A DNA stretch of 64,000 nucleotides from Lytechinus pictus (taxonomy: Eukaryota): the NCBI RefSeq assembly GCF_037042905.1, contig NC_087245.1, positions 3,350,001-3,414,000 on the forward strand, given 5' to 3'. Each line of letters opens with the position of its first letter. Within the stretch, counting starts at the first letter, position 1. Position numbers and translations under genes: made by a program. Shown piece after piece: positions 61,592-63,828 of this stretch. Below the pieces are notes generated by a model, which searched no databases, had not been told where the DNA came from, and saw only the letters and a program-made list of their open reading frames with translations.

Positions 61592-61954
61592 ATGCCGAAA
61601 AATGTCTCTGCCGGGAATCGAACCCGGGCCTCCAGCTTGGAACGCCCGTGCCTTAACCACTAGACCACAGAGACGGGTTAGTGGTAAGGGCGACCCCGAT
61701 CCGATTGACCGTTAGATAAAAAGATTTTCGACACTACCAATTATAATTTCTCTGTCGGGTGTAGGTAGGTTTTAAACAATGTCAAACCGCCATGCCTCAG
61801 CTGGATCAAAGCTATTGCTTAGATACAGTACACGTATGTGAGAAATTAAACATGTAAAACAGCTTTGGCAACAATTTTATTTCTATTATATTTTGTGAAA
61901 GAAATGGATGAGGAGAACAATGGTAGGCGAAGCTAAAAGCAAGGTTCCCCAGAG
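61592..61954 (-). mobile_element. tRNA-bearing tandem element, copy A (partial monomer)
   Basis: Homologous along its length to the monomer at 63420-63824; abuts (TA)n on the right. Confidence 0.85.
61603..61674 (-). tRNA. tRNA-like cloverleaf copy 1 (anticodon position TCC; one anticodon-stem mismatch)
   Basis: GTCTCTG TG GTCT AGTGGTTA AGGC A CGGGC GTTCCAA GCTGG AGGC CCGGG TTCGATT CCCGG CAGAGAC A, followed by TTTTT. Confidence 0.7.
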
Positions 61955-61958
61955 AGAG

Positions 61959-62022
61959 ATATATATATATATGTATATATATATATATATATATATATAT
62001 ATATATATATATATATATATAT
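61959..62022. repeat. (TA)n microsatellite between element copies A and B
   Basis: Direct reading. Confidence 0.97.
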
Positions 62023-62120
62023 TGTAAAGAAATTGATGAAGAGAACAATGGTAGGCGTAGCTTAAATCAAGGTTCCCCAGAGCTATCTACCCTTTGGAAA
62101 ACTTGGTGATGCCGAAAAAA

Positions 62121-63419
62121 TGTCTCTGCCGGGAATCGAACCCGGGCCCCCAGCTTTGAACGCCGCACAGTGGGCCGGGGCGAAACAAAAGTGCGCCAAA
62201 AGTCATTTTGGGCAATTTCAGAATTTTAATTTTTGTCATGCTCAGCTGAAAGACAACACTTTGAAGAATACTTCAGCAAAATATTTCATTCGGGAATTTG
62301 CATAAAGGTTGTTAATTTCCTACCTCAAATCTTAAAATGTGACATTTTGCGAAATGCCGCGTGTATGACAACTTAGTTGAAAAACAAGCAATTTCACGGG
62401 AGGTTTTTCATGTAGGAATCTGAAATGGCACCCACATAATCCTGTTATATTTTTTTTTTTCGTGTGAAATGGTCCAAATTAGATAAAAGACACATTTCAG
62501 GAGGTTTATAGAACAATTATTCCTCGAAATAGGCTGATAATCCATGTTTTTAGCATTTACATGAGAAACGTTTGGATTTCCATGGATTTCCGTTTAAATC
62601 CTATCATCATCATTTTGACAGATGTCTAAGCTTTAAGTCGATACCAAATTTAGCTGCCCGTTTTTGCCCGTTTTCATGTTAGAGCCGATTTTACTTGGCA
62701 AAATACCCCCAAAACCTGTTCAAAAACGGTCATTTTTATACCGCACATTCATCGCAGCGCACCGTGTGGGGTGTTCATTGCCGTTCATTTTTGCACGGCG
62801 AGGACGATTCCCCCTTCCATTCCATGAAAAAGACATGAATTCCGGGCATAATGCAAACAAAATAAAGGTTGATAACGCATATAAGGGCTACCCGCCCCTC
62901 TTCCAGAGATAAAATTTAATTTACTAATTTCAGCCAAAAGCCCTCCTCACAGTAAAACATTCGTGGTCCTATATACTCTGCGTTTTACCCAAGTCTACAC
63001 CGCTTGATAAAGCACGGTTAAATTTTTTTTCAGATTTTTAATTATTTTTTTAATCTAATGATCACTTTGATGCCATATAATTATTTTCAGGATCTCATAC
63101 ACACTTGTTAGGCATGTGAGAAGCATAAACCAACATTCACTCTGGTCAATCTTAAAGTAACACATAACACAAAGTTTATATACTACACATTGTTTAGCGT
63201 AATTTGTCTTTTCACAGATAGGTTTTAAGTAGCCAATCAAAATTTGGTATCAAAGTGACGTCATATCGGCTTTAAATTATGTTCAGTAGATTCTACGCCC
63301 AAAATTACCCTTAATCAACATGTTAAAGTGAAAATATAACACGGAATATAATTTTGGCGCACTTTCAACTCATTCTGGCCCACTGTGCGCCGGTGCCTTA
63401 ACCACTAGACCACAGAGAC
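62121..63419 (-). tRNA. tRNA-like cloverleaf copy 2 (anticodon position TCA), split by a Transib insertion
   Basis: Removing 62166-63392 restores GTCTCTG TG GTCT AGTGGTTA AGGC A CCGGC GTTCAAA GCTGG GGGC CCGGG TTCGATT CCCGG CAGAGAC A plus T6, with all stems paired. Confidence 0.75.
62166..63387. mobile_element. Non-autonomous Transib element, 5-bp TSD
   Basis: Ends CACAGTGGGCC / GGCCCACTGTG with second block AAAGTGCGCCAAAA; TSD CGCCG at 62161-62165 and 63388-63392; no transposase ORF. Confidence 0.93.
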
Positions 63420-63752
63420 GGGTTAGTGGCTAGGGCGACCCCGATCCGATTGACCGTCAGATAGACAGATTTTCGACACTATACCAATTACAATTTCCTT
63501 TGTCGGGTGAAGGTGGGTTTAGAACAATGACAAACCGCCATGCTTCAGCTGGATCAAAGCTATTGCTTTGATACAGTACACGTATGGGAGAAAGTATACA
63601 AATATGTAAAGTTATACATGTACAACAGCTTTGGCAACTCTTTTATTTAAATATTGTAAAGAAATGGATGAAGAGAACAATGGTAGGGGTAGCTTAAATC
63701 AAGGTTCCCCAGAGCTATCTACCCTTTGGAAAAATTGGCGATGCCGAAAAAA

Positions 63753-63824
63753 TGTATATGCCGGGAATCGAACTCGGGCCCCCAGCTTTGAACGCCGGTG
63801 CCTTAACCACTAGACCACAGAGAC
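63753..63824 (-). tRNA. tRNA-like cloverleaf copy 3 (anticodon position TCA; acceptor and T-stem mismatches, likely pseudogene)
   Basis: Same as copy 2 except 3' acceptor strand CATATAC and T-stem CCGAG; followed by T6. Confidence 0.65.
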
Positions 63825-63828
63825 GGGT

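Follow-up and report, generated by a model that had tools for sequence, protein, structure and literature searches.

Which kind of mobile element carries a complete tRNA gene inside a tandemly repeated unit, and what copies it? The question is raised by positions 61592–63828 of a 64,000-nt stretch of the Lytechinus pictus genome (the window: positions 3350001–3414000 of contig NC_087245.1, C1 below; the assembly searched, GCF_037042905.1, comprises 812 Mb), where two insertions of a tRNA-bearing repeat lie among (TA)n tracts. A sequence-only reading of this locus had taken them for a retrozyme-like element in which a tRNA replaces the ribozyme that cuts multimers. We find that the 405-bp monomer belongs to a family, young and dispersed, whose insertions have the anatomy of Penelope-like elements (PLEs), and consider it probable that this non-coding, non-autonomous element is copied in trans by the reverse transcriptase (RT) and GIY-YIG protein of a resident PLE.

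The tandem unit proposed in that reading is borne out by the spacing of its landmarks: the repeat period is 405 bp (63343 and 63748 lie 405 apart) and, with monomer positions counted from window 63828 on the minus strand, the tRNA occupies 5–76. Without the insert that interrupts it, copy B runs from 63828 to 62022 as 405 + 175 bases (1.43 monomers, first given as about 1.4) between two (TA)n tracts; as described, it starts 4–5 nt ahead of a tRNA, against the (TA)n at 63829, and ends at a TTTACAA site at 62022, against (AT)n. Copy A is an older copy, 82–88% identical (range to the young monomer 82–92%), and its best genome matches reach 85–88%. It does start mid-trailer, but its 3' end, at monomer position 88, lies beside a GAA-rich tract, so that bounding by (TA)n holds on both sides for copy B and not for copy A. 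Likewise, two of the three tRNA-like units reported, at 61603–61674 (anticodon TCC) and 63753–63824 (TCA), are complete 72-nt cloverleafs with T5/T6 directly after the discriminator; the middle one is split by a 1,222-bp insert (Table 1). The monomer has a GC content of 44% by base counts, and no open reading frame of 100 amino acids (aa) lies within 61592–63828.

A monomer search gave 1,174 first-look candidates, the best 38 of which held 191 matches when scored; genome-wide, a 27-nt tRNA pattern had 1,974 exact matches and a 3'-end pattern 1,984, with none for either reversed control, and the family is dispersed over most large contigs rather than confined to a single locus. A separate pattern search with 262 matches was biased by its end constraints and was not used for counts, and two metagenome pattern scans found no match. 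Part of the sequence also occurs in sequencing runs under a coded organism label (B), which cannot show a second species. Array sizes span 1.4 to more than 20 units; a very long regular array of at least 28 units with 406-bp spacing lies at C2:8866019–8877143, and another, at C4:8097569–8104416, has 17 units with equal scores.

How these copies end carries most of the argument. Among 32 merged best-match regions, a sample in which long young copies are over-represented, 31 stop at either of two places about 50 nt apart, site 1 (monomer ~175) or site 2 (~224), and 12 are arranged head to head. A less biased sample consisted of 20 C1 loci picked by position, each with a single intact tRNA motif: the 3' end is at site 1 in 11, at site 2 in five and elsewhere in four, and 14 of the 16 loci ending at either site visibly enter a TA/CA tract. 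Of the first 100 among the 1,984 3'-end matches, 34 continue from site 1 into TATATA. The 5' ends are scattered from +10 to beyond −300, with 19 of the 20 loci starting upstream of the tRNA and none within 5 nt of tRNA +1, and nine of the 20 carry an abutting inverted 5' piece. A target-site duplication is unreadable within (TA)n, where the insertions sit. For PLEs, the excerpts of Craig et al. (2021, PMC8557442) describe 5' truncation, partial tandems, an inverted copy, an optional tail and a TA target, and those of Frangieh et al. (2024, PMC11167929) demonstrate in vitro that the RT starts at two sites within the RNA. The match of two fixed ends, scattered 5' ends and inversions to this anatomy argues for PLE-type mobilisation, which we hold to be very probable, and upholds the non-autonomous, (TA)n-targeted Penelope-like tandem that had been proposed. 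Since none of the 20 insertions starts at the tRNA, a transcript starting there, as in a short interspersed element (SINE), is ruled out as the direct template; that the element is not a SINE had also been foreseen.

The tRNA gene, its antisense copy and the copying template

The tRNA is identical in 65 of 108 family copies, which score 65.3 bits on RF00005, and the family keeps all 21 cloverleaf pairs, a perfect 7-bp acceptor, the discriminator and T6. The intact acceptor claimed for the locus is thus a family property and not one of the window tRNA at 63753–63824, in which two acceptor pairs and one T-stem pair are broken. A and B boxes, set against the consensus of RNA polymerase III (Pol III) promoters, are seen in the family sequence. 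The anticodon is TCA in 106 of the 108 copies and in 98 of the first 100 genome matches of the tRNA pattern; only 22 matches have another base at position 36 (10 TCC, eight TCG and four TCT), so that the TCC of copy A is a minority state. Neither this family anticodon nor the insert in the middle tRNA and the antisense segment described below had been noted in the sequence-only reading.

No matching host tRNA was found among those examined. An ungapped comparison with host tRNA-Gly(TCC) finds 49 identical bases out of 72; with gaps allowed, Gly(TCC), Gly(GCC), Glu(TTC) and Glu(CTC) tie at 52–53 identities and Asn reaches 47, and the first ten bases equal those of Asn, leaving mixed identity elements (an Asn-like acceptor and Glu/Gly-like arms). 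A tRNA-Sec has a long variable arm and an extended acceptor stem; with 72 nt, a 4-nt variable loop, a 7-bp acceptor and no long variable arm, the element's tRNA was rejected as one, and the 'SeC' label given by ARAGORN follows the anticodon only. Resemblance to mascRNA/menRNA in Rfam was below threshold (29–30 bits against 42.5). The family tRNA has a G at position 32, which is unusual, and arrays with a changed U33 have spread; these two features suggest that decoding is not needed for mobility, and the UCA anticodon is probably a hitch-hiker. An older SINE family (L103–L105) has a Glu-class tRNA head that shares 77% identity, over 61 nt, with the tRNA of the element, and the two may possibly share a common ancestor. 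It was rejected as a second tRNA-bearing family of this kind, being an ordinary, non-tandem SINE with a 5' head.

At monomer 331–405, the tRNA and the start of its trailer recur in inverted, diverged form without the anticodon arm (alignment score 44 against 17.7 ± 3.4 in 1,000 shuffles; hairpin z −6.7). Among 31 monomers, variation per column is 0.005 at 351–405, 0.0085 in the tRNA and about 0.02 at 176–350. The monomer RNA is predicted to be highly self-paired, with z −4.1 for the linear fold and −132.7 kcal/mol, z −6.6 (40 shuffles), for the circular one, or −109.8 with the cloverleaf forced; opened at the first base of the tRNA, it would have its ends side by side. A>G differences occur in the RNA reads at many places along the monomer (20 and 36) and may reflect editing of the rod or older copies.

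Over 31 regions, a common (diagnostic) allele proved uniform throughout its array in 31 of 36 cases. Private-allele calls comprise 20 that are fixed across all covering monomers, in nine of the 31 regions, together with 95 single and nine partial ones; arrays of 2–4 monomers share private alleles, and at several loci these are common to both inverted arms. Given these array-wide private variants and the fold, we lean slightly towards a template that is a monomer read repeatedly, that is, a circle or a rod with adjoining ends.

The resident Penelope-like elements and rival explanations

Proteins that could copy such a template are at hand. A GIY-YIG scan gave 468 candidates, of which the best 150 were scored, with many matches in long open frames; one of them (L062, 2343–5423, G000:C20) holds an uninterrupted 976-aa RT and GIY-YIG frame from the first ATG with no internal stop, and is apparently an intact PLE, judged from its sequence. 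The resident PLE (L062 and L061) has a minimal hammerhead core, a (TA)n target and, in one copy, a TTTACAA end; a second copy ends about 55 nt further, and the resident tails measure 53–58 nt. From its cysteine linker and TA target we take it to be of the Neptune type. The autonomous partner, we infer, is a resident PLE with a C-terminal endonuclease. A 28-bp 3' stub of the tRNA element sits in the TA tract of L062, and at L061, L063, L065 and L106 several PLE families and the tRNA element lie side by side in TA tracts, often 3' to 3'. Such fragments beside PLEs (L062, L065 and L106) were rejected as a partner link, being separate insertions in the same TA tracts.

The element itself appears to do without a ribozyme. 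No hammerhead core was found by regular expression on either strand of the circularised majority monomer, and a related expression found cores in six of six PLE ends; the silence of Rfam is uninformative alone, as it missed the positive control. A cryptic hammerhead at monomer 281 was rejected (one mismatch, wrong stems, not kept in subfamilies), and we do not claim the trailer as a decayed hammerhead region: the expression matched 3 of 20,000 shuffles but was post hoc, and three profile-HMM tests were negative. The monomer and four of eight PLE ends have in common a short motif arrangement resembling AGCT ... GCTACG, some 30 nt from the end; it was defined post hoc, one family was selected on the motif, and the best pairwise p among seven tests was 0.024. 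The retrozyme-like reading gains support from the rod fold and the array-wide private variants, and the missing hammerhead core that it implied is upheld; its other half, a tRNA in place of the ribozyme, may be unneeded, because PLE insertion in vitro can dispense with the hammerhead according to the excerpts of PMC11167929.

The insertion anatomy was observed here, and the mechanism that we propose for it is drawn from known PLEs. The PLE endonuclease would nick (TA)n; reverse transcription would begin inside the RNA at one of the two sites 50 nt apart and run a variable distance over monomer junctions, and both DNA ends would often be primed, giving head-to-head pairs. The tRNA gene would most likely supply the Pol III promoter and, in the least certain step, might supply the cut sites too. 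In a read-through transcript from one tRNA, the antisense segment would pair onto the first tRNA and free the second as a cloverleaf (for a 1.2-mer from a tRNA, a predicted −167.5 with the second free and the first masked, against −164.2 for the reverse); RNase P would then cut before both tRNAs, leaving an exact 405-nt rod ready for ligation. Monomer ends defined by RNase P, a step that rests on modelling, seem to us doubtful.

Several observations weigh against this course of events. In silico, every cloverleaf of a long multimer is masked by the upstream antisense segment (acceptor pairing probability 0.0), so only a transcript starting at a tRNA could free the next one; the original proposal that host RNase P/Z cuts read-through multimers as a hammerhead does is thereby disfavoured, and in the free minimum of the 1.2-mer (−171.4) both acceptor stems are missing. 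Most Pol III transcripts would be expected to terminate at the T6 and T5 behind the tRNA, short of the 3' end motif. A pair of mRNA-seq runs from a single study (X21 and X22; 2,009 and 1,457 monomer reads of 12.9 million each) showed no sharp ends or end pile-up and no strand bias, and no CCA or modification signal appeared among the mRNA-seq rows listed; junction reads in such data are indistinguishable from tandem read-through, and thus uninformative for circles or small RNA. No PLE with a homologous 3' end was found in 18 regions (16 PLE-neighbouring ones, and two of the seven matches to a hammerhead-plus-motif pattern), nor in these regions a Penelope RT/GIY-YIG frame attached to the same repeat, for which the sequence-only reading had proposed a search, and three profile tests on the shared end motif gave no match. 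Pair-keeping transitions at 12 of 19 stem sites, against pair-breaking ones at three of 19 (p 0.007), form an asymmetry noted post hoc, and the control region 96–330 is also skewed (p 0.008); this test replaced a transmitted-versus-single variant comparison (p 0.01) that was confounded by recurrent transitions. Constraints of cloverleaf and rod overlap, moreover, and the tRNA of copy A is not significantly better kept than the rest (3 of 72 against 20 of 215, p 0.21). As for the template, divergence within arrays (0.0082) is like that separating nearest neighbours at different loci (median 0.0076; over all comparisons between loci the mean is 0.0193), some 5' pieces belong to a different subfamily, two types alternate in one array, and an array of 22 monomers has 3- and 7-monomer higher-order repeats, which indicate that DNA-level expansion also homogenises arrays.

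Much of this would be expected if PLEs mobilised the element from long RNA polymerase II read-through transcripts of arrays, with homogenisation at the DNA level and with the tRNA and its inverted copy as passengers, namely the remains of a tRNA gene or SINE head once captured and of an ancient 5' inversion. The monomer reads, equal on both strands and with 36–60% running into flanking sequence, are compatible with host read-through transcription; the dispensability of hammerhead cleavage in vitro, the higher-order repeats of the 22-monomer array, the readiness with which PLE inversions make inverted copies and the resident SINE head point the same way. However, with every generation 5' truncation would leave arrays shorter if multimers were not regenerated, private alleles are common to 2–4-monomer arrays and to both inverted arms, and a passenger role would hardly explain why a perfect acceptor, the discriminator and T6 have been retained where no host tRNA examined matches. 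We regard this alternative as unlikely. Improbable as a whole, too, is the fullest form of our own account, a ribozyme-free retrozyme that combines a 405-nt viroid-like circle, RNase P-set ends, a Pol III-promoting tRNA, an antisense folding switch and rolling-circle copying by a PLE with a UGA-reading tRNA shed from about 2,000 copies.

The anticodon invites another thought, that the element is favoured for a working opal (UGA) suppressor tRNA, for example through read-through of stops in partner retroelements. Near-uniform TCA in a complete gene with A/B boxes and a terminator, present in about 2,000 copies, would suit such a role, and in-frame UGA occurs in some PLEs elsewhere, as selenocysteine (excerpts of PMC8557442). 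Yet a young family inherits one anticodon regardless, the intact PLE frame has no internal stop, and G32, the spreading U33 variants, the mixed identity elements and the short variable arm, unlike that of tRNA-Sec, all fit poorly with decoding; such a role appears hardly credible from these sequences. An ordinary tRNA-derived SINE in tandem arrays, or a satellite of tRNA genes that spread through DNA recombination, would in turn account for the A and B boxes and for arrays of at least 20 monomers, and host tRNA genes are also clustered. It would not account for inversions, for 3' ends at set internal positions, for the targeting of TA tracts at scattered loci, or for insertions that never start at the tRNA, and the true SINE of the same genome has a 5' head and no tandem. 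The 20-locus anatomy has largely refuted this explanation, which we now rate as very improbable. Copying in trans by a resident PLE remains the explanation that we favour.

The insert in the middle tRNA and other features

The insert at 62166–63387 splits the GC-rich anticodon arm of the middle tRNA and makes up more than half of the interval first noted, as an element unrelated to the monomer. It has CACAGTG terminal repeats and a flanking 5-bp GC-rich duplication, CGCCG; each end consists of the CACAGTG heptamer, a 23-nt spacer and an A-rich nonamer-like motif. Its family is dispersed, with 45 matches in the best 40 of 554 candidates and about 40 full-length copies at 90–96%. Transib transposons have a heptamer starting with CAC, a 23-nt spacer, a nonamer-like motif and a 5-bp GC-rich duplication (excerpts of Kapitonov and Jurka 2005, PMC1131882). 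The insert is alike in all four features and differs from an autonomous Transib in that no transposase lies in the insert itself; it is best seen as a putative Transib-type non-autonomous element, with a related RAG-like transposon also conceivable. A second copy of this family abuts a tRNA 3' half at another locus (L009, 20–386). These insertions suggest that such tRNAs serve as preferred GC-rich targets in an AT-rich genome.

Table 1 Parts of the two copies and their surroundings, in window positions
Feature	Positions	Strand	Basis
Copy A: old, diverged partial monomer (about 115–405 plus 1–88), 3' end truncated	61592–61954	minus	
tRNA of copy A, anticodon TCC, 54.1 bits	61603–61674	minus	
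(TA)n target tract between copies A and B	61959–62022		
Copy B 3' part: T6, trailer hairpin, pyrimidine-rich stretch, 3' end site 1 (TTTACAA) at 62022	62022–62120	minus	
Middle tRNA, 3' half, anticodon TCA, interrupted by insert	62121–62165	minus	
Putative Transib-type non-autonomous DNA transposon, 1,222 bp, unrelated to monomer	62166–63387		
Middle tRNA, 5' half	63388–63419	minus	
Anti-tRNA segment (monomer 331–405)	63424–63498	minus	Alignment to tRNA
Spacer (monomer 225–330), most variable part between subfamilies	63499–63604	minus	
'Tail' between end site 1 (monomer ~175) and site 2 (~224)	63605–63653	minus	
T6 terminator, T5, trailer hairpin, internal copy of end site 1	63654–63752	minus	
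72-nt tRNA, A and B boxes, short variable loop, anticodon TCA, 44.3 bits	63753–63824	minus	
(TA)n tract at copy B 5' end, continuing past window edge	63829–64000		

Elsewhere in the window, a 73-bp tandem repeat occupies 24380–26429 (28 copies, 98% identity), and mirror-like AT-rich 31-bp and 129-bp repeats within 20469–24022 (20615–21210 and 23190–23877) suggest a large foldback element. Short palindromic elements that match themselves on the opposite strand, at 60736–60908 and 2199–2538, are likely miniature inverted-repeat transposable elements. The frames at 40319–40762 (plus strand) and 43951–44580 (minus strand) resemble, by eye, what we take to be decayed LINE reverse-transcriptase C-termini.

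Comparison with known systems

If our reading is right, PLE machinery can spread a small hammerhead-less RNA that carries a tRNA gene. The young, abundant and homogeneous substrate, together with an intact resident protein, would allow a test of what serves as the PLE/retrozyme template, be it a circle, a cut monomer or an uncut multimer; were the tRNA route true, it would be a new way of making circular RNA in animals. About 2,000 intact-looking UCA tRNA genes would have to be silenced or masked, or else would lead to stop-codon read-through, and such copies will inflate 'suppressor/Sec' counts in automatic tRNA annotation. We found no tRNA-bearing PLE-type tandem element in the full-text literature searched, a search that lay outside subscription papers, Repbase, Dfam and supplements, where a deposited consensus could exist.

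Animal non-LTR retrozymes are the nearest relatives in form: non-coding tandem units of 150–450 bp with a type I hammerhead and a link to PLEs (excerpts of Cervera and de la Peña 2020, PMC7229834, and of Li, Clavereau and Pollet 2026, bioRxiv 10.64898/2026.07.22.740005; the word 'tRNA' is absent from the main text of the latter). Going by these excerpts, the element resembles them in its 405-bp non-coding unit, its range from dimers to large multimers, its 44% GC (retrozymes lie under 45–50%), its highly self-paired predicted RNA and its PLE link. It differs in having no type I hammerhead, in carrying a full tRNA gene with terminator and antisense copy, and in showing no sequence homology to the PLE pseudo-LTR in the regions examined; retrozymes form monomeric circular RNA, whereas for the tRNA element variants and fold slightly favour a circle or a rod with adjoining ends.

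Non-autonomous PLEs such as Chlamys MRC1, as excerpted in PMC8557442 and PMC11167929, share with it 5' truncation, partial tandems, an inverted 5'-truncated copy, an optional tail between two RT start sites, a (TA)n target and multicopy head-to-tail insertions. According to the same excerpts, they generally share their 3' end with an autonomous family, of which the tRNA element showed none in the 18 regions; its tail is about 49 nt, against 30–40 in described PLEs and 53–58 in the resident one, and it has a tRNA as cargo. With tRNA-derived SINEs it has in common the internal Pol III boxes of a Glu/Gly-class tRNA and non-autonomous retrotransposition; unlike theirs, its tRNA is internal, complete and followed by T6, its units are tandem and inverted, and its insertions do not start at the tRNA. 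In mascRNA/menRNA and in circularly permuted tRNA genes, RNase P/Z acting on a tRNA fold sets an RNA end or a circular intermediate; those are host genes, whereas the tRNA element is mobile. Though it lacks a hammerhead, and with a partner that we place among the resident PLEs by inference, the element works like an animal retrozyme or a non-autonomous PLE.

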